A model generated the notes under the pieces. That model ran no database searches. It saw nothing but the letters and a program-made list of their open reading frames with translations, and had not been told where the DNA came from. Position numbers and translations under genes: made by a program. Shown in pieces: positions 1,209 through 57,675 of a stretch of 64,000 bases of DNA (position 1 is the stretch's first letter; every line of letters begins with the position of its first letter). The stretch is taken from sequence record KJ190158; one strand, given 5' to 3'. This stretch comes from Escherichia phage FFH2.

Positions 1209-2192
1209 ATGATGACAAAGTTAACTCTTGAGCAAATTTTAACACTAAAGCAACAGGGATACACTAATAGACAAATTGCTCGTGAATTTTTAGGCCGTGA
1301 GTCACGTGAGAGCTGGATCCGACTGCAGCTTAAACGTGCACAAGAGAATATGTCAGAGATTGTAGGAGAAGCAACGGAGCGCTTCCTTGAAGAGCACAAA
1401 GGTGCTAAAGTTTGGGTGTATGATACAGAGACATCTCCAACAAACGGCTGGTTCTTTGGGCACTATAAGACCAACATTCAAACCTGCGGTATTGAAATTA
1501 TGCCATATATGCTAACTTTCGCAGGTAAGTGGTTAGACAGTCCTAGTGTGGTTGACTGCGCTCTTCCTGATTATAAAATGTGGAGCGAAGATATTCACAA
1601 TGATCTTGAATTGATTCAGGACTTGTGGTATTATCTTGATAAATGCGATGTAGCAGTAGCCCACAATTCAGGTTTTGACTGTGGGTGGGCCAACCAACGA
1701 TTTGCATTTCACGGGTTGCCTCCAACAAGCTCCTACAAAGAGGTTGACACCCTTAAAATGATCAAGAAGGCATTCCGTTTGAATGCAAACACTTTAGAGT
1801 ATGCATGCAAATACTTCCAACTGGCCCGACAGAAACTGATTGACCACACATTTGAAATGTGGATCAAGTGTGTCCATGGCGATCTTGAGGCATTTAAACA
1901 GATGCGGGAGTATAATGTTGGTGATATCCTGTCTCTGGAAGGCTTGTATTTGCTGGCTCGCCCGTTTGCTAAGCAGCACCCAAACATGTCATTGTACTAC
2001 CAGGACGAGGAGCCAAAGGTTCGTTGCCCACGCTGTGGTGGAGAACACCTTCACGAGGAAGAAGCTTTGGCGTATACTCAGCTGAGTGCATTTAAAACAT
2101 ACCGCTGCGAAGGTTGTGGATCTGTTGTTCGTGATCGTAACAACATCCGTACCAGAGAAGAGATGAAAAACACCCTGATTCAGATAATCTAA
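1209..2192 (+). CDS. DEDD-family 3'-5' exonuclease (RNase H-like fold) with N-terminal HTH and C-terminal zinc ribbon
   Basis: VWVYDTETSP (ExoI DxE), VAHNSGFDCGW (ExoII) and YNVGDILSLEGLY (ExoIII Yx3D). The N-terminal QGYTNRQIAREF is HTH-like. The C terminus has CPRCGG...CEGCG. Confidence 0.7.
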   Translation: MMTKLTLEQILTLKQQGYTNRQIAREFLGRESRESWIRLQLKRAQENMSEIVGEATERFLEEHKGAKVWVYDTETSPTNGWFFGHYKTNIQTCGIEIMPYMLTFAGKWLDSPSVVDCALPDYKMWSEDIHNDLELIQDLWYYLDKCDVAVAHNSGFDCGWANQRFAFHGLPPTSSYKEVDTLKMIKKAFRLNANTLEYACKYFQLARQKLIDHTFEMWIKCVHGDLEAFKQMREYNVGDILSLEGLYLLARPFAKQHPNMSLYYQDEEPKVRCPRCGGEHLHEEEALAYTQLSAFKTYRCEGCGSVVRDRNNIRTREEMKNTLIQII

Positions 2193-2200
2193 CAAGTAGA

Positions 2201-2228
2201 GGGAGGCTTGCGCCTCCCTTTTCCTTTT
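2201..2228 (+). terminator. rho-independent terminator after the exonuclease gene
   Basis: GGGAGGC-ttgc-GCCTCCC stem-loop followed by TTTTCCTTTT. Confidence 0.7.
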
Positions 2229-2237
2229 GGAGGCACT

Positions 2238-3056
2238 TTGAGCAAGAAAGAGTCTAACGACAAATACTACACAAACCCTGAGTATGCAGAATATCTTGTT
2301 GGTAGAGTAAAAGACAAGTATGGGAATTGTGCATACGTTGAGCCTTCTGCTGGAAGGGGTTCTTTTTCAAAACTATTTTCAGAGATACTGTCGTACGATC
2401 TAGTACCAGATCCTGAATTTGAAGGACCAACACCGTGCATTCAGGCAAACTTCTTGGAGGTGCATCCCAAGGCAGATGTCTTCATAGGTAACCCACCATT
2501 TGGCAAGAATTCATCTTTAGCTTGCAAATTCTTTAACCATTGTGCATCGTTGCTAGATCTTGGCGGGGCTATAGCCTTCATCTTGCCACGGACATTTGAA
2601 AAAATATTTTTTGCAAACAAACTGGACATGTCTATGCACCTTGTCTACAGCGAAAGGTGCCCTAAGAACTCGTTTTTACTTAATGGCAAACCTTATGACG
2701 TGCCATGTGTTTTCCAAATTTGGGAGAAAAAGGCGTGCAATAGGGATCCTGTAGAGATTGGAGAGAATAGGTTATTTTCTTTTAGCACACCAGATGACTA
2801 CGACTTCTGTGTAAGACGTGTTGGGTATAATGCTGGAAAAGTATTGGGTGATGATGACCCAAAATCTAAAGAATCTACATATTTCATAAAATCTTTAGTT
2901 GACGGTGTTGACAGAGTGTTTGCTGAATGCTATTCTTCTTTTCAAGAAGAAGCAGGTAAGACTGCTGGAATGAAGAGTATAGGCAAGAAAGAACTACAAT
3001 ACATTTTGGAGACCCGGTATGATCAAAAGTATAGACTTGACCAAAGAACTTACTGA
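2238..3056 (+). CDS. DNA N6-adenine methyltransferase (motif I before motif IV, NPPF type)
   Basis: VEPSAGRGSF (SAM-binding motif I) followed by FIGNPPFG (motif IV). The start is placed at TTG 2238, with GGAGG 5 nt upstream, because the longer ORF start at 2208 lies inside the terminator hairpin. Confidence 0.75.
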   Translation: MSKKESNDKYYTNPEYAEYLVGRVKDKYGNCAYVEPSAGRGSFSKLFSEILSYDLVPDPEFEGPTPCIQANFLEVHPKADVFIGNPPFGKNSSLACKFFNHCASLLDLGGAIAFILPRTFEKIFFANKLDMSMHLVYSERCPKNSFLLNGKPYDVPCVFQIWEKKACNRDPVEIGENRLFSFSTPDDYDFCVRRVGYNAGKVLGDDDPKSKESTYFIKSLVDGVDRVFAECYSSFQEEAGKTAGMKSIGKKELQYILETRYDQKYRLDQRTY

Positions 3057-3477
3057 TGCAAAAGCTTTTGGTGAGACAGCAGTACAAAGGGGGCAGGCGA
3101 TGGGACTGGCACTACCTTTCGTCTTAAAAGAGCACTTTACAGATTTTCAACTTATCAAGGGTGATAAGGGAATGCTTATCCTGGAGCATAAGTTGAGTAA
3201 GAAACGCTATAAAGTTGTTTTTAATTCTAAAGCTCCAACAAAACTGGGATTCAGAACTTACAATCTTAACCCATCCTACACTAAGGGTGTTGGAAGGGTA
3301 GAACAACAGCATTTCAGTGCCAGAGCTTCTTTAGCCCCTTTGATGCTAAATTTCTCAGGGGTGGCTTTAGGATACCTTGATAAGAAAAGAGTTCTTCATG
3401 TCCGTTTCACAGACTTTGTAACGCTCTTAGCTAACAACGAGGTTGATGAAAAGGGACGTGTAAAAACAAACTTCTAA
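3019..3477 (+). CDS. hypothetical protein
   Basis: 152-aa ORF with GGAGA upstream of the ATG. It overlaps the methyltransferase 3' end. No recognisable motif. Confidence 0.55.
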   Translation: MIKSIDLTKELTDAKAFGETAVQRGQAMGLALPFVLKEHFTDFQLIKGDKGMLILEHKLSKKRYKVVFNSKAPTKLGFRTYNLNPSYTKGVGRVEQQHFSARASLAPLMLNFSGVALGYLDKKRVLHVRFTDFVTLLANNEVDEKGRVKTNF

Positions 3478-3504
3478 TAACGCATAGTATGATTGGAGAC
3501 CGAA

Positions 3505-3696
3505 ATGACACTAAAGTTAACAATTCCAGACAGCTTTTCAGAAAACTTTATCCCAGAAATGATGAGTAAGATGCGATCATTGCTTGATCAGATTGAGGAG
3601 GCTGTTTGGGAAGACGATGCTGTAGTGGCTAACGAGCTGGTAGATAAGTGTAAAAGTATTATTGATGCAGTTGAAGAATACCACGGAGGTTTTTGA
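3505..3696 (+). CDS. hypothetical acidic protein (63 aa)
   Basis: ATG 3505 is preceded by GGAGAC. The stop overlaps the next start (TGATG). Confidence 0.55.
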   Translation: MTLKLTIPDSFSENFIPEMMSKMRSLLDQIEEAVWEDDAVVANELVDKCKSIIDAVEEYHGGF

Positions 3697-4310
3697 TGGA
3701 TATTATTGTTCTTAACGCCCCACCCAGCAGTGGTAAGGATCACATTGCAGATCTCTTGTTGGAAGCTATTCCTAACTCACACCACCGCGAGGTTAAGGAG
3801 ATGCTCTTTAGTGTGGCAATTAAGGCAGCTGGTGTAACTCCTCAACTCTGGAATGCACTTTATGACCGCCACTACAAAGAAGAGCCTTGCCCTTTCTTAA
3901 TGATAGACGGCAAGCATGTTTCTCCGCGAGAATGGATGATCCATTGTAGTGAAAATCTGATTAAACCTATCTTTGGTGAAGATGCTTTCGGTAAAGCCGC
4001 AGTCGCATCTTTGAAGAAAGATTTCCCTAAAGGTAAAGGGGTTGTTGTTTACTCCGATGGTGGATTCAAAGAGGAGCTGGCATGCCTTAGCGAGTACGCA
4101 TACAGCACAGGTGGAGATCTGTTGTTGTTCCGTATTCACCGTGTCGGATATGACTGGGGAAATGATTCCAGAACCTATCTAAGTCTGGAAAAGAACGGAA
4201 TAAAAGGAATTGAGTTTGATGTTGTAAACCCTGAAGGTGCACCTTGGGAATGTGCATCGGAGATTGTGTGCAAGTATATTGATGCTAAAGAGGCCCAAGA
4301 AGAATGTTAA
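3696..4310 (+). CDS. P-loop kinase, probable deoxynucleoside monophosphate kinase
   Basis: The N-terminal IIVLNAPPSSGKDHIADLL P-loop is arranged as in T4 gp1 and T5 dNMP kinases. GGAGG SD upstream. The gene sits in the nucleotide-metabolism cluster. Confidence 0.5.
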   Translation: MDIIVLNAPPSSGKDHIADLLLEAIPNSHHREVKEMLFSVAIKAAGVTPQLWNALYDRHYKEEPCPFLMIDGKHVSPREWMIHCSENLIKPIFGEDAFGKAAVASLKKDFPKGKGVVVYSDGGFKEELACLSEYAYSTGGDLLLFRIHRVGYDWGNDSRTYLSLEKNGIKGIEFDVVNPEGAPWECASEIVCKYIDAKEAQEEC

Positions 4311-4897
4311 TCGGAATTGATGTAGATTTGACACTGGTAGATTCAGGAACAGCATGGTGGGAGTGGTTGGAGCGTTTGTATGGTCCAGCCAGTAAGACAG
4401 TCGCTAAACCTTCTAATGGACTGATGTATTACGATCTGTCAAAGTATTGGCCTGATCGCCCCAAAGAAAACATCATAGGGCCTTTTGATTTCTGGAGTGA
4501 CCCATTCCTCTACGACTTTCTTAAGCCTGAAGAGGGGGCTATTGAGGTTATGAAAGATTTGGTGGCTCGTGGTCACAAGCTTGCATTTATCTCGGTATGC
4601 AAGAAAGGTCACCTTGCATCTAAATCAAGGTTCTTAAAGCGTTGGACCAGTGATTTTATGGATCTGGACGATCACACCCAGGGTCACGGCTTCTACGCCA
4701 CACATTTCAAAGGAAATGTGGCTGTAGATGTTATAATTGACGACAGGCATGAATACCTTAACCAATTCGCTTCACGACCTGAAGTTATTAAAATCCTAAA
4801 AGATACGCCTTATGAGCAATTCGAGGAGTTAAAGGTCAGTGTTGACTATACCGCTAATAGTTGGTATAAAATAGGAAAGTTTTTAGAAGGTATTTGA
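4304..4897 (+). CDS. HAD-superfamily phosphatase, 5'(3')-deoxyribonucleotidase-like
   Basis: N-terminal GIDVDLTLVD (DxDxT nucleophile motif) and a later VIIDDRHEYL (DD motif). Size and context match phage deoxyribonucleotidases. Confidence 0.55.
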   Translation: MLIGIDVDLTLVDSGTAWWEWLERLYGPASKTVAKPSNGLMYYDLSKYWPDRPKENIIGPFDFWSDPFLYDFLKPEEGAIEVMKDLVARGHKLAFISVCKKGHLASKSRFLKRWTSDFMDLDDHTQGHGFYATHFKGNVAVDVIIDDRHEYLNQFASRPEVIKILKDTPYEQFEELKVSVDYTANSWYKIGKFLEGI

Positions 4898-4898
4898 A

Positions 4899-5099
4899 AT
4901 GGGCAGATGTTCTAAAGGTGGCGATCCTGTAGTCAGATACGGTGACTGGCTGGAGGTATATGATCTGGGGGGTAAGCTAGTGTATGCCTCCAGGATCACC
5001 CAAGATATGTGCTCTGATATGTTTAACAGATACCTTGCATTTAAGGCCAATATAAACCCAGACGAAATTTCCAAAATTAAAACAAGGAGAGCTAAATAA
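4899..5099 (+). CDS. hypothetical protein
   Basis: 66-aa ORF between two enzymes, with an AGAAGG SD. Its stop overlaps the thyX start. Confidence 0.5.
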   Translation: MGRCSKGGDPVVRYGDWLEVYDLGGKLVYASRITQDMCSDMFNRYLAFKANINPDEISKIKTRRAK

Positions 5100-6082
5100 T
5101 GCTAAAACTGTGCACTGCAAAGATCATTGCTGACAGCATTTCCGAGAAAGGTAAGCGTATCACCACTTTTGAACTAGAGTATCCTCGAATTATTCACTCA
5201 GAGCTTATGACGCACCGAGTATTCAGCCGAAACGCCATGTCTTCCCGTGCAGTGCCTGTCGGCAAGATGCTGCAGCAGATTGTGGAGAATCCGGCAATGC
5301 CAGTTCGCTTCGGTGTAAATAAGCGAGGGATGGAAGATGGTGGGGAACACGATCAAAAGATCCGTGTAGAGTACACTGACATGGAGCTAACCCCTGAAGA
5401 GTTTTGGAAAGAAGCTGCAAAAAACGCCGCTTGGCATGCAGAGAAGTTCGCCCTTGCTGGTTACCATAAACAAGTATGTAACCGCTTAGTGGAGCCGTTT
5501 CAGCGCATGAAAACAGTTGTAACAAGCACAGAGTGGAATAATTTTTTCCATCTCCGTTGCTGGCACGATGCGGATCCTACGATTCAGATGTTGGCTAATT
5601 GTATGTGGGAAGCTCTTGTGAATAGCACTCCTGAAATCCTTAAACCAGGTCAATGGCACACTCCATATGTAGAGCACGTTTATTTGGACGGAGAGTTTAA
5701 CTACGCTGTACGTGACACAGAAGGAAAGCTCTGCATTCTTGATACTAAAGAAGCTCTGTCTATTAGTGCTAGTTGCTGTGCACAAGTATCTTATCGAAAT
5801 ATTGACAGCACGTTTGAAAAGGCAGACAGTGTGGCTAAAAAATTGATTGGTGGGGATCGTATTCATGCAAGCCCTTACGAACACCAGGCAACACCTATGG
5901 ATCATGATAACGCAATGGAACGTTTAAACTACTACCTATCTTCATGTGAAATCACACAAGACATTAGTACTTGGCAGGAAGGTGTAACCCATCAAGACCG
6001 TGATGGTAAATTCTGGTCTGCCAACTTTTGTGGGTGGGTTCAGCACAGACAACTGCTTAATAACCACTTCGTGAAAGGTTAA
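5099..6082 (+). CDS. thyX: FAD-dependent thymidylate synthase ThyX
   Basis: HSELMTHRVFSRNAMSSRAVP matches the ThyX signature RHRxxSxxxxSxR. AAGGAG SD upstream. Confidence 0.9.
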   Translation: MLKLCTAKIIADSISEKGKRITTFELEYPRIIHSELMTHRVFSRNAMSSRAVPVGKMLQQIVENPAMPVRFGVNKRGMEDGGEHDQKIRVEYTDMELTPEEFWKEAAKNAAWHAEKFALAGYHKQVCNRLVEPFQRMKTVVTSTEWNNFFHLRCWHDADPTIQMLANCMWEALVNSTPEILKPGQWHTPYVEHVYLDGEFNYAVRDTEGKLCILDTKEALSISASCCAQVSYRNIDSTFEKADSVAKKLIGGDRIHASPYEHQATPMDHDNAMERLNYYLSSCEITQDISTWQEGVTHQDRDGKFWSANFCGWVQHRQLLNNHFVKG

Positions 6083-10326: not shown

Positions 10327-10605
10327 ATGAGCTGTGAAAAATCTTTTTTCTTTATTATTTACGGTAAAGATAACTGCCCACATTGTGTAAGAGCAAAAGA
10401 ATTTGCAGTCAGTAAGGGTCTGCCTTTTGTATATAAGACACTTGGCGAGGGTTACACAAAAGAAGAGCTTATTGAGAAGTGCAGTCCAATCGTACCCAGA
10501 ACGTTGCCGCAGATCTTCTTAGAAAGTAATCTTGAAAGTGTCCATATAGGCGGTGCCGACGATTTCATCTCTTTTGTTAAAAATGGTTTTGGAGAGAAAA
10601 AGTGA
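10327..10605 (+). CDS. Glutaredoxin/NrdC-like redoxin
   Basis: YGKDNCPHCVRAKEF has a CPHC active site. TLPQIF...IGG is the glutaredoxin-fold cis-Pro and GG region. The gene sits between nrdB and nrdD. Confidence 0.8.
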   Translation: MSCEKSFFFIIYGKDNCPHCVRAKEFAVSKGLPFVYKTLGEGYTKEELIEKCSPIVPRTLPQIFLESNLESVHIGGADDFISFVKNGFGEKK

Positions 10606-11462
10606 AAGTTGTAAAACGGGACGGTAGAGAAGAGTTCTATAACGGAATTAAGGTGATCAAGGCGGCAGAGTCCGCCTTACTTGAGTCTGGACATACTGAA
10701 GAAGAAGCTTACCGGATCGCCTGCGCGGTTAATGAAGTTGTTGCTAACAATCTACCAACCGACCAGTGCACGATCTCTGTAAAAAATATCCATATCCTTG
10801 TTGAAGACGCTCTTATGGATATGGGTTTAAAATGTGCAGCCAGAGAATACATCCAGTATAGGCAGACAAGAGATAATAACAGAGAGGCAGGTGGAAAACT
10901 GCTTGCAGATATTAGTGGCTTCTTGGATCGCACTTGTGATGAATTTACAAAAGAAAACGCAAATAAGCCTACCAATCATGTACACACTCATCGTGACCTG
11001 CTTGCAGGCATCCTTAGCAAACACCTTGCATCAACACAGATCCTGACAGACCGTGTCTCAGAAGAGCACAATAAAGGCTTCATCCATGTGCATGATCTTG
11101 ACTACTTGATCAGTCCGTTAACAAACTGTTGTTTGGTAAATTATCCAGATATGTTGGAAAACGGATTCAACATTGGTAACGCCCATGTCAGTAAGCCGAA
11201 GTCAATAGGGGTTGCAACAACAATCCTTAGCCAAATCTCTAGTGCAGTAGCTAGTGCTCAATATGGAGGTCAGACTATGAGCCATATTGATCATTATCTG
11301 GCACAGTATGCTGAAGCGACCTATGAGAAGAACCTTAAATTTTGCCAGGAACATTGGTTGCCAGATGCTGAGACTGTTGCAATGCAAATGACAGATAAAG
11401 ACGTATTTGACAGCATGCAGACTTTGCTCTATCAAATCAATACGTTAACCTCTGTCAACGGT
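10602..11462 (+). CDS. nrdD: Anaerobic ribonucleoside-triphosphate reductase, exon 1
   Basis: ATP cone (KVVKRDGREEFYN) and colinearity with E. coli NrdD up to ...YQINTLTSVNG (E. coli ...YEVNTLHTANG). The frame hits a stop immediately after the proposed 5' splice site. Confidence 0.9.
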
Positions 11463-12260
11463 TAACAAACTGGCCGTTGTAAAACTCTCCTAACCTCATA
11501 AGAGGGGTCGGTAAATCCGGCTAACGGGGAACGCTAAGGCGAAAGCTATGCCAATCCCGTGACTAGTTCTTACAGGAGTTGGAACGGTTGTAACGACTAA
11601 CGAAAGGCAGAGATGCTTGACAAACATTTCTGAACCAAGTAGTGTAGAGGTTAGTTGAAATACTAACTTCGAAATGGAGAGGCTCTATGAAAAAGATCAT
11701 TCTTAATGGTGAAGAATCAAACTATGTGATTGATGAGGTTGGAAACGTATACGGAAAACGTGGAATGCTACACCCAATATTGTGGGGAGGTTATGGAAAA
11801 GGTAACAAGCATGTTAAACGCCGTTATATGTACTCTTTCAACCACAAAGGTAAAAAGATTCGAATCCAAACCTCAAGGATTGTTGCCTTGTATTGTTTGC
11901 CAGATGTCCCAGAAGACCCTGAAAACTGGGAAGTGAATCATAAAGACGGCAATACATTGAATGATCATCCGTCTAACCTAGAGTGGGTTTTGCCGGAAGA
12001 TAATAAGAGACATGCTTTCCGAACAGGGCTTTGCCCAGGCAAGTGCTATAGGAAAGTGCAGGCATACAAAGGGAAAACCTTGGTGGGTGAATATCCTTCA
12101 CTCTATGCCTGTGCAAAAGCCTTAAATTTGAACGTAGGTAACGTTCATAGGGCTATCGAAGGAAATGCCGAAGGTAAGCATCTCACAATAAAGGGTTATT
12201 ATCTTATTGAAGTAGAGTAAGAGATAGTCTGGCCCTGTGGAAACACAGGGGAGGAGACAG
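11463..12260 (+). mobile_element. Group I intron in nrdD carrying an HNH homing-endonuclease ORF
   Basis: The exon end CAACGGU can pair with the intron GCCGUUG (11475-11481) to form P1 with a U.G wobble at the splice site. The intron ends in G (12260). P7 candidates are GACUA (about 11565) and UAGUC (12225-12229). Joining 11462 to 12261 gives NTLTSVNG|QTPFITLSLGLDTS, matching E. coli NTLHTANGQTPFVTFGFGLGTS without a gap. Confidence 0.85.
11687..12220 (+). CDS. HNH homing endonuclease (intron-encoded)
   Basis: VNHKDGNTLNDHPSNLEWV is an HNH motif. A C-terminal NUMOD1-like HTH is present (YPSLYACAKALNLNVGNVHRAI). The ORF lies entirely inside the nrdD intron. Confidence 0.85.
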   Translation: MKKIILNGEESNYVIDEVGNVYGKRGMLHPILWGGYGKGNKHVKRRYMYSFNHKGKKIRIQTSRIVALYCLPDVPEDPENWEVNHKDGNTLNDHPSNLEWVLPEDNKRHAFRTGLCPGKCYRKVQAYKGKTLVGEYPSLYACAKALNLNVGNVHRAIEGNAEGKHLTIKGYYLIEVE

Positions 12261-13523
12261 CAGACTCCATTCATCACATTAAGTTTAGGACTGGATACCT
12301 CGGTCTTTGGTAGAATGATTACCAAAAATTACTTGAAAGTCCACAAAATGGGTCTTGGTGAAGAACGTATCACACCTGTGTTCCCTAAAGTGCTGTTCTT
12401 CCTAGAAGAGGGTGTCAACATGAACCCTGGAGATCCTAACTATGATTTGAAAAGATTGGCTCTGGAATGCTCTGCAGAGCGGATTTATCCTGACTTTGTT
12501 TCTGTTCCACTAAATCGTAAAGTGACAGGCTCGACAGATGGTAAAGTAACGAGCATGGGTTGCCGGAGTTTTCTTAGCAAATACAATGACTTGGAAACAG
12601 GCGAGGAGAAATACCTTGGCAGATTTAACTTAGGCGTTGTTAGCCTTAACCTGCCAATGATTGCGGCAAAAGCTAAAACGGAAGGTGTTGATTTCTTTGC
12701 AGTTCTTGACGAATACTTGGATCTTGCATACGAGGCTCACCTTGTAAGGGTTAACCGTCTAAAAGGAACAAAGGCAGGGCAGAACCCTATCATGTGGTGT
12801 GAAGGCGCTCTTGCTCGCCTGGATCCTGAAGAGAGTATTGATAAACTCTTCTATGACGGGTACGCTTCCATCAGTATTGGGTATATTGGTGTGTATGAAA
12901 CCTGTCAGATTTTGGGCAGAGAGGGTGACAAGGCTTTAGCTCTTGGAATCCTTCAGCACATGAAAGATGCTTGTGAGCGATATAAGAAGGAAAGTGGACT
13001 AGCATTTAGCTTGTACGGCACCCCTTCTGAGAGTTTATGCTATAAAGCTGCAACCTGTCTGGATCGTGAATATCCAGAAGTGTTGAAGCACGAGCATGAA
13101 TACCTCACCAACAGTTTCCATCAGCCAGTATGGATCAATAGTTCACCTTTTGATAAGTGGAAGTATGAAGAAGGTTTTGCTATGATCTCTTCTGGTGGCA
13201 ACATTGGATATATAGAGACACCTAACCTGAAAAACAACCTGGATGCTTTAGAGGCTCTTGTTGACTTCGGGTATAAACACATTATGTATTTTGGTATTAA
13301 CCAACCTGTGGATAAATGTCTCAAGTGTGGTTTCTCTGGTGAGTTCAGTGCAACAGCTAAAGGCTTTGTATGCCCAGAGTGTGGAAACCATGAAGAGGGA
13401 ACGATCAGTGTAATTCGACGTGTGTCCGGATACCTTTCCAGTCCTAACTCCCGTCCTTACAATAAAGGTAAGCAAGCGGAAGTTATCGAGCGAGTTAAGC
13501 ACTATGGAAGTTGTAGTTGCTGA
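12261..13523 (+). CDS. nrdD: Anaerobic ribonucleoside-triphosphate reductase, exon 2
   Basis: Colinear with the E. coli NrdD C-terminal half. It has a Zn ribbon (CLKCGFSGEF...CPECGN) and the glycyl-radical motif RRVSGYLS. Confidence 0.9.
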   Translation, partial: QTPFITLSLGLDTSVFGRMITKNYLKVHKMGLGEERITPVFPKVLFFLEEGVNMNPGDPNYDLKRLALECSAERIYPDFVSVPLNRKVTGSTDGKVTSMGCRSFLSKYNDLETGEEKYLGRFNLGVVSLNLPMIAAKAKTEGVDFFAVLDEYLDLAYEAHLVRVNRLKGTKAGQNPIMWCEGALARLDPEESIDKLFYDGYASISIGYIGVYETCQILGREGDKALALGILQHMKDACERYKKESGLAFSLYGTPSESLCYKAATCLDREYPEVLKHEHEYLTNSFHQPVWINSSPFDKWKYEEGFAMISSGGNIGYIETPNLKNNLDALEALVDFGYKHIMYFGINQPVDKCLKCGFSGEFSATAKGFVCPECGNHEEGTISVIRRVSGYLSSPNSRPYNKGKQAEVIERVKHYGSCSC

Positions 13524-51186: not shown

Positions 51187-51540
51187 TTAGTGACAATCAC
51201 CCCAATTACGACCACACAAGTATTCACCTGTGATCTGGAACGGGACTCCCATCATTTTAGAAGCTTGCCAGAAGCAATGTACCACCATTTCGCCCACAGG
51301 ACTCCAGATAAGTTCAAGCTTTCCGTCATCGTTCAAGATAGGATCGTACACCGTGTTTCCGTCTCTGTCAACCACTTCGTTTCCGTCCTCATCCTTGCGT
51401 GCCTTTTTGTACTTATGACCGTCGAACACATGAAGTTTGGCCTCCTGCTCTGCCTTAAATGCTTCCAGTTCTTCGATTGTGTCGAAGGTGTACACAGTCT
51501 TATACTTCGGTGTGTCAGGGACTTGAAGCTGATATTCATC
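51187..51540 (-). CDS. DNA polymerase (family A, T7 gp5-like), exon 2
   Basis: It begins DEYQLQV..., completing motif C (YYH|DE). It ends ...GRNWGDCH, like the T7 polymerase C terminus ...GPNWAICH. Confidence 0.85.
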   Translation of the reverse strand, partial: DEYQLQVPDTPKYKTVYTFDTIEELEAFKAEQEAKLHVFDGHKYKKARKDEDGNEVVDRDGNTVYDPILNDDGKLELIWSPVGEMVVHCFWQASKMMGVPFQITGEYLCGRNWGDCH

Positions 51541-52383
51541 CATCTGTTCAGGTAGGTCGTTAAGCTACCCCGCACCATTACGTGCATAGCCATACAGTTT
51601 CCTGTATGGATCGGACTACCTCACTGCCTTGGTAACAAGGCACCTCCCATTTCGACCGCACTTGCTGGCCTACTCTACTCGCTTCTTCACACCAACCTAT
51701 GTTGGAGCTATGCTTTCGATAGTCTCTGAACGTTACTACCAGGTGTAGTTTTTAGAGATATGTTTCCACTGTCTTCTTTGCTTTATAGCCCTGACGGTCT
51801 CATAAGGATATCCAAGATCCCTAATCTCGCATTGTCGTAGACCACTCTGCAACAGTTCGCAAATCTCTATTACCTCATCTTCTGTCAGCACAGCGTTAGC
51901 ATTATACTCACCAACTGGCCTTACTCTGAGGTCATTATCATAGGCGTGCTTGATATTTCCACCAGGGGTGGTCCATTCTAGGTTCCAGTATGCATTGTTG
52001 TACTTATTCCCATCCTTATGGTTCACCCATGTGAGTCTTTCAGGATCTGGGTTTGATACAAAGCATTCAGCAACCAGGTGGTGGACACCTTTTGTGCACT
52101 GCTTCCCCTCGATTAGCATGGTTACGCAAAGGTAACCTCTACCATTATCAAAACAAAACATTGTTGTATGATCACGTTTCGATAAAGGTATTGTTCCATC
52201 ATCAAACACGGTATACCCGTGATAATCAGCTGTTCTAGCCATTTTAACTACACCCCTTTAGTCTTCGCTGCGGATTAGCATATTGAGCTTTTACCATACT
52301 CAGGTGTAAAAGTCAACTTAGCTTCCCCGTCAATTAAAGAGGTTATTCGACATAGATTACTCTATGAAGCCACAATGTTATTT
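51541..52383 (-). mobile_element. Group I intron in the DNA polymerase gene carrying an HNH ORF
   Basis: Minus strand: exon 1 ends ...UACCAU, which can pair with the intron UGUGG (U.G at the splice site). The intron ends ...ACAGAUG. P7 candidates are GACUA (5' part) and UAGUC (3' part). About 135 nt and 195 nt of GC-rich noncoding flanks surround the HNH ORF. Splicing restores the HDE of pol A motif C. Confidence 0.8.
51736..52242 (-). CDS. HNH homing endonuclease (intron-encoded)
   Basis: WVNHKDGNKYNNAYWNLEWTT is an HNH motif. The C terminus has an HTH-like region (LRQCEIRDLGYPYETVRAIKQRR). Confidence 0.85.
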   Translation of the reverse strand: MARTADYHGYTVFDDGTIPLSKRDHTTMFCFDNGRGYLCVTMLIEGKQCTKGVHHLVAECFVSNPDPERLTWVNHKDGNKYNNAYWNLEWTTPGGNIKHAYDNDLRVRPVGEYNANAVLTEDEVIEICELLQSGLRQCEIRDLGYPYETVRAIKQRRQWKHISKNYTW

Positions 52384-54807
52384 ATGGTAATAAATAATAC
52401 GACGAACACCTTCATCGTACCACCCACGCTTCACCATTTGGTGGTGCATGAGTATCCCAACTAAGTCACACAACGATGCACCACCATTTTGTTGGTATGC
52501 ATTAAGTAAAGAGTGTTTAGATCGGGTCCAGATGGCATGACCATCAAAAGAGTAGATAAACTTCTTACCCGTTGCTTCCCAGAATTTCTCCAGATCCTCT
52601 TTACGGCCCTTAAGACCAGGGTTGGCATCCCAAAGCGCATCGATTACCCTTTGTCCCAACTCTGGAGAGATGTCCAGCATATCTGCAACTTTATCTTTTT
52701 GTGCCCCGTACATAACCCCATACGTGATAGGTTTACCGTCGTTACGGGACACCTCTCTGCCTGCTACTTTTGTATATGCCTCAGCATTGTTTTGGTGTGC
52801 GTCTCCGTTACTTACAACATCATAATACAAGCCGTTGTCGAACTCAAAGGCACCCCAAGCCCCGATAAGCTGCTCTAAGTTGGACCCGTCAATACCGATC
52901 TCAAAGTATCCAGGAGGAACACCCCACAGACTACGCATCTCTTTACCCATAACCACTTTAGGAGATGGTTTAGGCATGTTTGCACAAATACTGTGTTTCT
53001 GTCTGGAAGTGTTTGTTAATCCAGAGCTTTTAGCAGGAAGCTTATGGTCAATCTTCAAACGTGGGTGATTAAGAAGACCAGTGTCAACCTTATCCTCCTT
53101 GATTGGATCAAGTACCGATCTGCGGTTTCGCAATGATAACCATAAGACGATATCTTTAGCCATCTCTCCGTTCAATTTTTCAAGATTCGGACACAGGTGT
53201 CCAAACGTATCTTTCAGTTGCGGAGAAGTAATAAGTGCCCTAGCTTTTCTACGTATTTTCCCGAATACTTCCTTTTTAATCCTTTCGGAGTTAGGAAAGC
53301 TTCGGAACTTGTGCACTGTTGTCTGAAACTTAGCATCAGTTTTGTTCCAGAAGTTGATAATTAGGTCACAATACTCTGACTCTAAAAGCTCGTCCATGTA
53401 TGCATATACTCGTGCATCAACATCTGCATCAGGTAGAGCTTTCTTCTTGCTGTCTTTAGTTACATCCTTAGTTCTCCACATTGTCGGAAGCCAACCAGCA
53501 CTGATCAGGTATCGCTTAATGTCGTCCTGATTGCTGATTTTCATAGGTATCTTGCAGTCAGGCATTCGCTTCTGCTGCAGATCGCTTATTGCCTGATCCA
53601 TCAGCTCTTTAGGCAAAGGTTGTGGTGTGGAGGTGCCCTTAATATAGCCTCTCAAGAAATCAGCCATCTTATCGTGGTCTTTGCAGCCCATCTCTTCACA
53701 CCATTTTATCCCCATTTTACTGACATCTCCTGTGGAGGTAAATGCTCGCTTAGGTGGGGCTTTGAACTCTAAAGCGCTCATGTCTACAGGATAGCCAAGC
53801 TTATCTTTTAACCATTTCCAACCATTATTGGAGATTGTCCCATCTTGGTTAAACGGCTTTTCAGGGAACTTGGGCCGCTGAGACATTGACAGCTCTTTTA
53901 AAGGTAGTTGTGGTTCAACACGATCAGCTATTTCTTTCATCCACGCATCGCAACGGTCACGTAAAGCAATAGCCCCGTCTATGTCGAAATACACACCCTG
54001 ACGGGCCTGCAGCTCCATCAGGAAGTGCTGCAGCATGCCTCGACGTAGTGCGTTCTTCCAGGTGATCTTCTTGAACCCTTTCGGCTTCTCTTTGGCTGGA
54101 TCGTACATAAAGTTCTGCATGTCAGATTTGCCGTAGAATACACCTTTTGATTCCGCTACCAGCTCTTTCCAGAGCAGCTCCTGGATGATAACGTCCTCGA
54201 ATACACGATCCACATACTTCCACAACGGAAGATCGCGCCAGTCATCAATTTGAACTTTCTGGTTACCAAGGGCGTAGCCCCATGCCATAAGGCCGTGAGG
54301 ACCAACAGGCTGCATTTTCTTAGTAACCGGGTTGAATACAGAGTCCGGACAACCTTTTGGTAAAGGGCGATCAGGCCACAAGATTCGGCTCATCGCCAAC
54401 GTATCAAACAGGTTAACCTGGTGGTCGTTGATAGTCCCCATACATTTAGGATCACGGAACATATCAAAATGAATACCGGATAATCTCTCCATCAGCATAA
54501 AGTCATAACTGTAGCAGTTATGGCAGTTCAAAGCTGTTGGTGACCAGTCGGAATTGCCTGTAAGCCAACCCTCCAACTCCGAAAAATCTGCTATGCGAAC
54601 TTCAAAATCCTTATAAAGAGTTTTCTTTGCCAGAATAAAGTTCTTAGCCTTCTCTATATCCTCCTCGGAGTAGTGTGTGCGGTCATTTAGAGGAAGGAAC
54701 AGCATAAAACGGTTCTTATTCAGCTCTTTAAACAGGCCGCAATGATAATAAAGATCTGGGTCTTCCAAAAGCCCTGAGGCCTCCAGATCGAAGCACCAAT
54801 TACTCAT
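52384..54807 (-). CDS. DNA polymerase (family A, T7 gp5-like), exon 1
   Basis: N-terminal 3'-5' exonuclease motif WCFDLEASGL (DxE). Polymerase motifs follow (DGSNLEQL region, KPITYGVMYG motif B-like). As a plain ORF it stops one codon after ...IIYYH, inside motif C. Confidence 0.9.
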
Positions 54808-55538
54808 ACTGTCTCCTCCTGTGTCTTCTCAGCATTCTTTCTTGCAGCTATTGCATCGTCCCTGTTCTTGAAATACCCAAGGCATTTCCTTTTACCATCT
54901 ACATGAATTCTGGCTACCCATCTTTCATGGGTTTTATCCCAATTCACCCCTGAGCAACCGCTGGTGTTATTATACTGCACGGCTCTTCCACTCTTGTGCG
55001 AAAAACCATTATCTTCGAAGAACTTTCTTGCCCACTCTGCCTCTTCAAAAGTTCTGTACTGGCCTAGCCAGACCCTTTCACCTACAGAGTCTGTGCCTTG
55101 AGCTACCCATGCCCCTCTTTCTTCAGAATAGTGCACCCCGACCCTGCCAGATTTGTTGTTGCTACGAGGTATCTTGCAACTTTTCTTTTTGTTATCTGTA
55201 GGTTCGAGTAGTTGCAAATTATGAATACTGTTGTCAGCCACACCACCTGTTTCCCTTATCTCCTTGATGTGGTCAACCTCATACCCTTCCGGTACAGGAC
55301 CGTTAAACATTTCCCAGATTATAACGTGGGCACCTTTAGTGCAATGCTTTCCTAGACTAACCACAGGCCTGCCATCAGCATCTTGCCCCTTGTCAGCTCT
55401 GGAGCCTGCTGAAGTTTTAACATATCCTACACCGCTGCCTGCCAGAATGTCTATCTTCCAAAAAAGATTTTGACCGTCATACTCCAATATTTCTGACCAC
55501 AAGTGATTAGCTACACAGTGATCTCTGAACTCGTTCAT
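54804..55538 (-). CDS. free-standing HNH endonuclease with two AP2 DNA-binding domains
   Basis: EVDHIKEI...NSIHNLQLLEPTDNKKKS is an HNH motif. Two AP2-like repeats follow (SGRVGVHYSEERGAWVAQ...LGQYRTFEEAEWARK and SGCSGVNWDKTHERWVARI...LGYFKNRDDAIAARK). Confidence 0.8.
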   Translation of the reverse strand: MNEFRDHCVANHLWSEILEYDGQNLFWKIDILAGSGVGYVKTSAGSRADKGQDADGRPVVSLGKHCTKGAHVIIWEMFNGPVPEGYEVDHIKEIRETGGVADNSIHNLQLLEPTDNKKKSCKIPRSNNKSGRVGVHYSEERGAWVAQGTDSVGERVWLGQYRTFEEAEWARKFFEDNGFSHKSGRAVQYNNTSGCSGVNWDKTHERWVARIHVDGKRKCLGYFKNRDDAIAARKNAEKTQEETV

Positions 55539-55596: not shown

Positions 55597-57675
55597 TTAA
55601 AAAGGTGTTTCATCATCCTCAAAACCAGGGACCGGATCAGAGGATGGATCATCGTATTGGAGGTCTTCCTGCGTGTCAATAGGCTTGACAGTGGGTGTTA
55701 CAACCTTATCAGCCACAACCTTGCCCATAGGTGTTTCTACAACTGCATGCTCTTGATCCTCAAACATAGCCTGAGGTCTCCAAACAACCTCCCCACCTTC
55801 TCCGTCTGTAAACATTTGCATTTCTTTGTCCCAGTACCAATTACTGGCATCATGGAACTTACCTGTGTGCGGGTCCATAACTAAAGTGTCAGCAATACCT
55901 AAAGTTTTTGCTGGACGGTTCTTAAGACCTACCAGACGGACACGTCCACGAGAACGATCCACCATTTCTTCGGCCTCGACACCTATGACTACCCAACTCA
56001 ACTGTTCAAGCCCAGCCGATCCTCGCAAATTCTCTTTTCGCACAGGATACCAGAAAGGTAACGGGTTACCATCTTTGTCCTTAGGAGGCACAATCTCTGT
56101 ACGTTTGAGGTGAGCGATCACCAAGATAAACACGTTAAACTGCTTACAAAACGCAGCCAGTTGGGTCATAGCCATGTCCAGTTCTTTTCGCTCATCCTTA
56201 ACATTAAGCCCTGAAATTACCATGGACAGGTGATCCAGCACAATATAACGACAATAGTACAGGCAAACCATTTGCTTAAGCTTGGTAATCAACTCGTCCA
56301 CCGGAATAGACCCGAAATGTTTGAACACTTTGATTTTTCCAGCTTTTGCCCATGATTGGTGAATCTCTGCGTGTTCTTGATCAGTTAAAAACTGGCTAGG
56401 ATCTTCAACAAACTCTTTAACATCAAACCCTAACTGGTTTGCATACAAGGAGTTAATTGCTTCCTCTGGATCCTCCTCAAGATGGATCATGCATAGACGA
56501 TCATCCTCTTCATAGTCATCGGCCTTCGGGCATGTCGGGTCCATTAAGTATCTTGCAATACAGTGTTCCAGTTTTTTAGCCACGGTTGTTTTACCGCCGC
56601 CTGATGGACCTGTAAGCATTACGAGTGTCCCTTTGTGCAAGCCTTTTAGCATTTTTTGCAGTTTTGGGAACTCTGCACTGATATCTACCCCGTTGGAAGT
56701 CTTTTTCCGCAAAGACTCGATAGAGAAGTCTTCTAAATCCGACACAGCATCAGGCACATATTTAACAGGGTGCCGGAACATGTTGACAATATCTTCCAGC
56801 TTTTTAGCCTTCAGCATGTCTCGGATATCTTTTACACCGTCAGGGTCATTTACTTCACCAGGGTATTCTACGTGGTAAACGTTATCAGCCATCAAAAATG
56901 CTGCGATATTGTGCGTGGCCTCAACACCTTTAATGACGTGTTTTTGCTTCTCTACCTCGTTAGCTGCATCGTTATCCATTGCCAGCACAACTGTTCCATA
57001 GCTACGGATAAACTTCTCATTGTTTGCAAAAGTATCTACTGCGTTTGCACATCCACAGTTAATTCCAACAAAAGGCAGGCAGGGTTTTCCTGCCAGATCA
57101 CCACCGTTGATAACTGCGTCGATCCCGTCCTGGACCTCTTTAGCCCACTGCTTCACCTTTGCCGGGGCTTTAGCGTTGGTGAGAATCCCTTTTACTTGTA
57201 TCTGATATGCAGCCTGCCATGCTGCAATAACATCACCTTCTCCCTCACAAACGTTAATCTGCTTACGGTTGTTGGAAGATGCACACAGCTTTTGACCAAA
57301 CATCTGGGAGTTGGCCTTTACGATGCCAACAACGGAGAAATGGCCCCTTTGCTCTTTAGGAATAGTCCAGTCACGCTTTTTGAAACCAGACAGATTTCCG
57401 TAGCGGTCGTAATATGGGAAATATGTTGCAGTGACTGTCACACCGTCTTCTTGGGACAATGCTGATCGCACACCAAAATATTGTGCAGCCATCAGACCGA
57501 TATTTTGTTGTGGGACAGGGACAATTTTAGTATTTTCTAAAACAGTCTCTACAGTTTCAACTTCTTTTTCATCACGATAGTCTCGTTTCACACTTCCCCC
57601 ACTTTTATACTTAGTTGCTTTCGGGTTTGGCTCACCGAAACGGTTGTATGCAGATGCCATAAATTTACTTCCCAT
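55597..57675 (-). CDS. bifunctional primase-helicase (T7 gp4-like) without an N-terminal zinc ribbon
   Basis: TOPRIM (NVCEGEGDVIAA ... VLAMDNDAAN), Walker A (LTGPSGGGKTT) and Walker B (YIVLDHLS). Acidic C-terminal tail ...GFEDDETPF. There is no Cys in the first ~128 residues. Confidence 0.9.
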   Translation of the reverse strand: MGSKFMASAYNRFGEPNPKATKYKSGGSVKRDYRDEKEVETVETVLENTKIVPVPQQNIGLMAAQYFGVRSALSQEDGVTVTATYFPYYDRYGNLSGFKKRDWTIPKEQRGHFSVVGIVKANSQMFGQKLCASSNNRKQINVCEGEGDVIAAWQAAYQIQVKGILTNAKAPAKVKQWAKEVQDGIDAVINGGDLAGKPCLPFVGINCGCANAVDTFANNEKFIRSYGTVVLAMDNDAANEVEKQKHVIKGVEATHNIAAFLMADNVYHVEYPGEVNDPDGVKDIRDMLKAKKLEDIVNMFRHPVKYVPDAVSDLEDFSIESLRKKTSNGVDISAEFPKLQKMLKGLHKGTLVMLTGPSGGGKTTVAKKLEHCIARYLMDPTCPKADDYEEDDRLCMIHLEEDPEEAINSLYANQLGFDVKEFVEDPSQFLTDQEHAEIHQSWAKAGKIKVFKHFGSIPVDELITKLKQMVCLYYCRYIVLDHLSMVISGLNVKDERKELDMAMTQLAAFCKQFNVFILVIAHLKRTEIVPPKDKDGNPLPFWYPVRKENLRGSAGLEQLSWVVIGVEAEEMVDRSRGRVRLVGLKNRPAKTLGIADTLVMDPHTGKFHDASNWYWDKEMQMFTDGEGGEVVWRPQAMFEDQEHAVVETPMGKVVADKVVTPTVKPIDTQEDLQYDDPSSDPVPGFEDDETPF

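Follow-up and report, generated by a model that had tools for sequence, protein, structure and literature searches.

The DNA polymerase locus of Escherichia phage FFH2 raises the question of how one polymerase can be made from a gene that reads as separate open reading frames (ORFs). We analyzed a 64,000-nucleotide (nt) stretch of DNA from this phage (sequence record KJ190158), referred to here as the window. The polymerase gene is encoded on its minus strand and is preceded by a primase/helicase gene (55597-57675) and a free-standing HNH gene (54804-55538). Across 3.8 kb, the region shares 96 to 98% identity with E. coli myophages of the rV5-like group (genus Vequintavirus, for example WalterGehring, ECML-10 and phiWec189). 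The three minus-strand ORFs described here by a first-pass annotation, a model's reading of the sequence alone, were present as described, with coordinates that match the ORF list. They are an ORF of 809 amino acids (aa) at 54807..52378, whose C-terminal end reads ...RRIIYYHK*, a 168-aa ORF at 52242..51736 between the two polymerase ORFs, and a 118-aa ORF at 51543..51187, which starts with MDEYQLQV and ends with GRNWGDCH. We conclude that the polymerase gene is very probably interrupted in motif C by an 843-nt mobile group I intron, probably of IA2 type, with an HNH gene, and that splicing gives a 925-aa enzyme.

The position of the insertion was determined by comparison with phages that lack it. 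In the intron-less sister phage JES2013, the junction reads TATTACCAT|GACGAATAT within an uninterrupted 925-aa polymerase coding sequence (CDS), and the alignment of JES2013 DNA with the window locus is gapless apart from an 843-nt block. Removal of this block (52383..51541) joins CAU to GAU. The splice junction proposed in the first-pass annotation, 52384 joined to 51540, removes exactly these 843 nt and was correct to the nucleotide, giving ...IIYYH|DEYQLQV... and a 925-aa product. Four more intron-less alleles share the JES2013 junction reading, the pattern among the sister phages being ...TATTACCAT|GAYGAATAT.... The junction is fixed to the nucleotide because a one-base shift either way fails to give the sequence of the intron-less allele. 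The boundaries of the intron are thus confirmed as exact to the base. The predicted spliced junction is ...UAUUACCAU|GAUGAAUAU... in RNA and ...TATTACCAT|GATGAATAT... in complementary DNA, and the junction peptides predicted from splicing are one that spans IIYYHDEYQLQVPDTPK and YYHDEYQ.

We then considered the protein encoded by the joined exons. Exon 1 (52384..54807, minus strand) comprises 808 codons, the last of which encode ...YYH and end in CAU. Exon 2 (51187..51540, minus strand) comprises 117 codons and the stop, and its first residues are the catalytic Asp-Glu of motif C. The two exons are contiguous in JES2013. Exon 1 has a Pfam DNA_pol_A match and aligns to T7 gp5, and exon 2 by itself gave a match (E 1.3e-58) to the phrog_8888 DNA polymerase profile, in its C-terminal part. 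A search of exon 2 alone against PDB sequences gave no polymerase match. Joining the exons extended coverage of the DNA_pol_A profile from positions 137-261 to positions 137-348. Moreover, the alignment of the joined protein with T7 gp5 crosses the junction (RRIIYYHDEYQL versus AYMAWVHDEIQV, E 5e-16); YYHDEYQL of the spliced product is aligned to WVHDEIQV of T7, and the HDE of motif C is continuous only after splicing. The C terminus had also been likened to that of T7 gp5. Fittingly, GRNWGDCH and GPNWAICH were found to match end to end in a pairwise BLASTP comparison of exon 2 with the last 104 aa of T7 gp5.

The alleles, homology and covariation together support what had been proposed, namely a group I intron at these boundaries (51541..52383, minus strand) with the HNH gene inside and the HDE of motif C restored by its removal. 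In a permissive search, the Rfam model Intron_gpI (RF00028; gathering cut-off 50 bits) matched the 5' part of the intron, corresponding to P1, P2, P3 and P4-P6, with 26.8 bits (E 1.5e-4). ORF-less orthologues at the same site pass the cut-off, with 64.7 bits for the intron of rV5 (276 nt) and 73.7 bits for that of JEP1 (328 nt), and at both of its ends the window intron can be aligned, base for base, with these ORF-less orthologues. For the 3' half of the intron, from P7 to the 3' splice site, we used a covariance model, R1, made from 17 homologues with the window excluded. R1 matched the window at 51730..51538 over the full model length with 147.3 bits (E 4.5e-34), the next-best match within the 64 kb being 23.8 bits, which places the result far outside chance. 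When run on the intron-less JES2013 locus and on T7, R1 gave no match.

Covariation was assessed on a set of 17 same-site introns from which the ORFs had been trimmed, using a manual structure that consisted of P1, P2, P3, P6, P6a, P7 (as a pseudoknot), P7.2, P8, P9, P9.1 and P9.2. Same-site introns were gathered from four genera of the Vequintavirinae (Vequintavirus, Avunavirus, Seunavirus and Certrevirus), a Vibrio phage, Aeromonas Plateaulakevirus, Pseudomonas Pakpunavirus and six metagenomic viral contigs; all of those gathered are inserted after the CAU of ...YH|DE.... Standard pairs were observed in 95.2% of cells with the manual structure, compared to 35 to 41% when the partners were slid, and changes on both sides were observed in 39 of 58 pairs, compared to 10 to 17 with slid partners. 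The covariation score was 0.565, against at most 0.124 after sliding and a mean of 0.209 after shuffling, and none of 500 shuffles reached 0.565. RNAalifold, applied to the 17-sequence alignment, gave compensatory changes in 34 of 50 pairs. The P3/P7 pseudoknot is outside what RNAalifold can draw, and P7 was set manually; it replaced a GUCC pairing with the 3' exon (columns 311-314 with 387-390) that RNAalifold had returned, which was invariant and was judged spurious. A bulged A and variation in length shifted the MAFFT columns of P4 and P7.1. P7.1 was left unscored, and P4 was tested by duplex folding of both strand regions, which gave the P4 duplex in 16 of the 17 introns, in at least five sequence variants, the seventeenth (L021) being misaligned by MAFFT.

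All elements of the intron described below are on the minus strand. The 5' exon had been predicted to end in a U that pairs with the intron, and this holds in each of the 17 related introns. The exon strand of P1, CCAU (52384..52387), pairs with GUGG (52373-52370) through CG, CG, AU and UG pairs that are invariant in 17/17 introns, and U52384 thereby lies in a U·G pair at the 5' splice site. GUGG is part of the internal guide CAUUGUGG (52370..52377), of which the other half, CAUU, pairs with GAUG of exon 2 (51537..51540) to form P10, with 4/4 pairs in 14 of 17 introns. The guide CAUU-GUGG thus forms one uninterrupted pairing with the ligated exons CCAU|GAUG, made up of P1 and a 4-bp P10. The intron was also expected to end in G; its terminal G (omega-G) is G51541, at the 3' splice site, and a G stands there in all 18 extracted same-site introns.

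Between these ends, the P2 hairpin (52351..52366) showed compensatory changes in 6/6 pairs, and the 5' strand of P3, CCUCUU (52337..52342), showed them in 5/6 pairs with its partner GGGAGG (51643..51648), which was placed by covariation. The P4 to P5/P5a/P5b domain (52269..52332) follows the Rfam alignment, P4 being formed by 52332-52326 with 52274-52269, and the P5 extension (52323-52277) comes from the minimum free energy (MFE) fold. The 5' strands of P6 (52268-52266) and P6a (52263-52247) occupy 52247..52268 and were assigned with RNAduplex, with equivalent stems in relatives; the 3' strands of P6a (51749-51735, overlapping the ORF stop codon) and P6 (51732-51730) occupy 51730..51749. For P7, the 5' strand GACUA (51720..51724) and the 3' strand UAGUC (51614..51618) were paired in 100% of cells and supported by covariation, with 3/5 pairs compensatory and variants such as GGCCA/UGGUC, GGCUA/UAGCC and GAUCA/UGAUC in relatives. 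The peripheral elements typical of subgroup IA, P7.1 (51719-51679), a GUA-containing linker and P7.2 (51670-51654), are found at 51654..51719. P7.2 showed compensatory changes in 4/5 pairs and the linker is present as GUAG, and P7.1 comes from the MFE fold, with short GNRA-capped hairpins in relatives. The P8 hairpin (51625..51642) was compensatory in 6/7 pairs. Finally, the P9 (with a GAAA loop), P9.1 and P9.2 hairpins (51551..51609) showed both-side changes in 5/8, 2/4 and 4/5 pairs, respectively. By its P7.1/P7.2 helices, of which P7.1 is taken from folding only, and its GUA-containing linker, the intron would group with the subgroup IA2-type introns of phages.

One structural element of the first-pass annotation had to be revised. 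It had placed the P7 strands GACUA and UAGUC on either side of the HNH ORF, which is wrong, since both strands (51724-51720 and 51618-51614) lie 3' of the ORF. The upstream GACUA (52263-52259) was rejected as a P7 strand: it pairs in P6a instead, and alignment with the P7 of ORF-less introns, together with covariation with UAGUC, points to the GACUA at 51724-51720. The HNH ORF (51736..52242, 168 aa) is located in the loop of P6a. Its flanks, GACUAAAGGGGUGUAGU (52263-52247) and ACUACACCUGGUAGU (51749-51735), pair as P6a with -17.7 kcal/mol according to RNAduplex, the closing stem of the ORF loop being GACU..GGGGUGUAGU / ACUACACCUGGUAGU. P6a-equivalent stems of quite different sequence are present in 8/8 ORF-bearing introns, and ORF-less introns have a short P6a hairpin where the ORF would sit. 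The P6a stem takes in the upstream GACUA, the purine-rich Shine-Dalgarno-like AAAGGGG of the ORF and the ORF stop codon. This covering of the ribosome-binding region and the stop codon suggests that folding of the intron may limit translation of the endonuclease.

In the interpretation that we favor, the polymerase would be transcribed as one pre-mRNA, in which the intron separates CAU from GAU, the His and Asp codons of family-A motif C. The intron would fold to a P1-P9.2 core with a P3/P7 pseudoknot and P7.1/P7.2 extensions. Free guanosine would attack after U52384, held in its U·G pair with the guide GUGG; the guide CAUU would hold GAUG of exon 2 in P10, the terminal G51541 would be exchanged and the exons would be ligated. 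Translation would yield a 925-aa T7-like polymerase with the HDE intact and the C-terminal residues ...CH. The HNH protein would most likely nick or cut intron-less alleles of co-infecting relatives near the insertion site, and repair from the intron-bearing copy would spread the intron, a process known as homing.

Experimental splicing is available for a homologue at the same site. In the Certrevirus phage CB7, an intron that carries the HNH gene CB7_50 and lies between the polymerase pieces CB7_51 and CB7_49 splices in vivo, as established by reverse transcription-PCR and Sanger sequencing (PMC7344957). The insertion site of this second polymerase intron of CB7/phiTE, which was read directly in the 92.5%-identical phiTE counterpart, is identical to that in the window (...IIYYH|DEYQLE...). 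R1 matched the 3' half of the CB7 motif-C intron with 164 bits, and about 60 nt at the 5' end and 150 nt at the 3' end of the CB7/phiTE ribozyme are homologous to the window intron. However, the P5-P6 region differs, the HNH gene is a different and shorter one (384 nt), and the polymerase gene of CB7/phiTE contains a further intron upstream. As in the window, there is a free-standing HNH gene 5' of the polymerase in CB7, where it is non-spliced (PMC7344957). The extra upstream intron is an observation in its own right: an HNH-bearing polymerase intron without counterpart in the window was seen in Certrevirus, Avunavirus and Seunavirus (L004, L005, L006 and L008; CB7, L033, at 2818-2969), and its 3' half is related to that of the motif-C intron (R1 90 bits in CB7).

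Several observations weigh against a spliced, mobile intron in FFH2. Splicing was demonstrated by experiment in the CB7 homologue, and in FFH2 it is inferred. At the gathering threshold, an Rfam search of the whole window gave no Intron_gpI match; since the ribozyme halves are kept apart by the 507-nt ORF, the window intron taken in one piece stays under this score. The ORFs in the covariation alignment were trimmed by hand, and the elements misaligned by MAFFT, P4 and P7.1, were checked separately. The joined polymerase scores 31.8 with DNA_pol_A, under the curated cut-off of 34.3, and the match of the HNH ORF to Pfam HNH_3 is weak (17.7 bits versus a cut-off of 24.8). Moreover, the last three bases of the intron are AUG, in frame with exon 2, and separate translation of exon 2 is formally possible.

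The weak HNH_3 match also bears on a different account of the element, in which the ribozyme splices but the HNH protein has lost its homing activity, so that the intron is a vertically inherited passenger in the lineage. We regard this as unlikely, although it deserves serious consideration. The HNH ORF matches the phrog_59 HNH endonuclease (E 1.5e-36), and its closest solved relative is I-HmuI (PDB 1U3E, E 3e-5), the nicking enzyme of the SPO1 polymerase intron. Compared to 1U3E, the HNH motif is intact (vHHLVAecF...vNHKDGNKyNN..wNLEW, with H..N..N aligned). An intact I-HmuI-type H..N..N motif (HKDGNKYNN...NLEW) in an ORF of full length, 168 aa, whose translation is 95 to 100% identical across 27 phage records, argues against a degenerate enzyme. 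Among 29 close relatives sampled at even spacing, three natural states of the site were observed: 17 alleles were empty, 7 had short ORF-less inserts (about 276 to 329 nt) and 5 had inserts of about 843 nt, corresponding to the intron with its ORF. ORF-less derivatives are thus common (7/29), the pattern expected of the decay stage in a homing cycle and in keeping with an inactive HNH protein, whereas the patchy occurrence of the intron among phages that are 92 to 98% identical speaks against a vertically inherited passenger.

A codon marker next to the insertion site bears on the same point. The motif-C Asp codon (51538-51540 in the window) is GAC in 5/5 intron-less alleles (L001 and L034-L037) and GAU in 17/18 intron-bearing alleles, counts that come from related sequences and hence are not an independent-sample statistic. 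The change is synonymous, and GAU supplies the U-A pair of P10. Selection for P10 would be consistent with this pattern, as would co-conversion in the course of homing or resistance of the empty sites to the endonuclease. That the GAU/GAC marker at +3 tracks the presence of the intron fits ongoing gene conversion and is a further argument against an inactive HNH protein.

An account without any splicing, in which a homing-endonuclease insertion leaves the polymerase as two separately translated chains of 809 and 118 aa, is very improbable. Such a two-chain arrangement has reportedly been described for NrdA of Aeromonas phage Aeh1, split by mobE. The nrdA/mobE locus resembles that of FFH2 in that an essential gene of replication or nucleotide metabolism is divided by an HNH gene; however, it has no ribozyme and gives a two-chain enzyme, whereas the ORF in the window is flanked by a complete covarying group I core. 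Two chains would be consistent with the in-frame AAA UAA directly after exon 1 and with the AUG that ends this variant of the intron in frame with exon 2. However, a start codon is not conserved in frame before exon 2, where the triplet is UUG or GUG in many introns but UAG, AAG and AGG in L014, L018 and L021, and no Shine-Dalgarno sequence is present upstream of the exon 2 AUG (...CCUACCUGAACAGAUG). The split would also part His from Asp-Glu within the catalytic motif. An HNH insertion in CB7, CB7_245, did not splice (PMC7344957), which lends the two-chain account some support, but the CB7 intron at the same site as that of FFH2 does splice. Finally, compensatory changes maintain a complete ribozyme core, which is unexpected for a non-functional spacer, and ORF-less versions of the intron exist that would have no reason to persist except splicing.

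An intein, or readthrough by frameshifting or stop suppression in place of RNA splicing, can be dismissed: although relatives such as Mangalyan and JEP1 have an intein-like insert, in frame, at another position of the polymerase gene, the insert in the window is not an in-frame stop-free one, with a UAA two codons past the junction, many more stops in the exon frame and a separate HNH ORF that has its own start codon, and its 843-nt length and RNA structure suffice without recoding. In Mangalyan (L031; the locus at 1779-5177, minus strand) and JEP1 (L003), polymerase exon 1 has 1132 codons, compared to 808 in the window. The excess consists of 323 aa inserted in frame after ...VSNGDAH (window residue 671), with the sequence CYSGDTQIL...VAVCGN and then a Cys. 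This insert, which is absent from the window, looks like an intein.

We retain the group I intron as our interpretation and turn to its precedents. The first-pass annotation had referred to introns at catalytic motifs of polymerase genes in SPO1-like and some T7-like phages, and for the latter the precedent is stronger than it had claimed. A related intron is present in K1F at the identical H|DE site, and the T7-like phages PhiI and W31 have IA2 introns with an HNH ORF in P6a at Pol I site 881 (PMC3428280, citing Bonocora & Shub 2004). In Pol I numbering, H881|D882 is the position corresponding to the codon boundary used in K1F and in the window. The joined polymerase CDS of K1F is split at GTGCAT|TAACATC...AAAG|GATGAG (...AWVH|DELQ...), with an HNH ORF before GUAGAGACUA, and the K1F intron core is detectably homologous to that of the window intron (R1 32.3 bits, E 2.8e-7). 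The two share the subgroup-type architecture, the HNH ORF upstream of P7 and the insertion point, after the His codon and before the Asp codon of motif C. However, K1F is a podovirus with a 704-aa polymerase, and its intron is much more divergent in sequence, with another HNH protein and another P9 region. SPO1, SP82, Bastille and Pf-WMP3 also have group I introns in family-A polymerase genes with nicking HNH enzymes (I-HmuI, I-HmuII, I-BasI and I-PfoP3I), but these introns interrupt the fingers subdomain, at site 674 in Pol I numbering, and not motif C (PMC3428280). The FFH2 element is an ordinary representative of the mobile group I introns, a known family, that target motif C of phage family-A polymerases.

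The element is also already known among close relatives of FFH2. WalterGehring (MZ501111), which is 96% identical, has the same element at the same site, annotated as a joined two-piece CDS with a 'putative homing endonuclease' inside, and it shares both HNH genes, including the free-standing one upstream. LL12 (MH491969) is annotated with an 'intron-interrupted gene' at the same site, but in the 276-nt ORF-less form also found in rV5; the genome announcement of LL12 likewise states an intron-interrupted gene (PMC6658697). Across these and other Vequintavirus phages (ECML-10, phiWec189, C12 and others), the intron is 94 to 99% identical, and apart from the ORF-less form there is essentially no difference from the window. 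With these joined CDSs, the splicing in CB7 and the same-site introns of T7-like phages, the element has not been overlooked. Its annotation is another matter. The first-pass annotation had anticipated that automated annotation would list a truncated polymerase and an orphan ORF, and this is indeed what many records contain: that of the type phage rV5 (DQ832317) lists a 775-aa polymerase and 'hypothetical proteins', and those of ECML-10, phiWec189, APECc02, Mangalyan and others are split. The rV5 genome paper gives a 775-aa polymerase and reports introns only in the terminase gene (PMC3606486). The 276-nt ORF-less group I intron in the rV5 polymerase gene is located at 2901-3176 (L002), and it went unrecorded in the genome paper; the hypothetical proteins of the record are ORFs 225-227.

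Two other mobile elements were observed in the window. On the plus strand, a second HNH-bearing group I intron appears to split the anaerobic ribonucleotide reductase gene nrdD (10602-13523). The 5' ORF (10602-11465) has an ATP-cone and covers NRDD profile positions 1-154, the HNH ORF (11687-12220) encodes an HNH_3 / I-HmuI NUMOD-like protein, and the 3' ORF (12237-13523) covers NRDD 155-562 and the glycyl-radical domain. This candidate was matched by Rfam Intron_gpI at 11963-12250 (27.7 bits, E 3.8e-4) and by R1 at 12144-12291 (23.8 bits). A weak R1 match at 11619-11730 on the same strand (14.6 bits, E 0.057), just 5' of the HNH ORF, is probably part of the nrdD intron or chance. On the minus strand, the free-standing gene at 54804-55538, between the primase/helicase and polymerase genes, encodes a 244-aa endonuclease with HNH and AP2 domains, and its stop overlaps the polymerase ATG by 4 nt. 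WalterGehring and JES2013 carry the gene and rV5 lacks it; this presence or absence among relatives identifies it as a separately mobile element.

The current understanding of group I introns is unchanged by these results. Their main value is for annotation, in that the true product of many rV5-like records is very probably a 925-aa enzyme made after RNA splicing. They also illustrate that introns of a single family have become established at the same catalytic codon boundary in phage groups that differ widely. The closely related E. coli phages, with their empty, ORF-less and ORF-bearing alleles, are convenient material for experiments on homing. It is possible, although we would stop short of calling it probable, that the complete homing cycle is still running at the Vequintavirus polymerase locus, in E. 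coli K-12 phages that are easy to handle. If so, cleavage specificity, co-conversion and intron loss would be directly measurable in this system.

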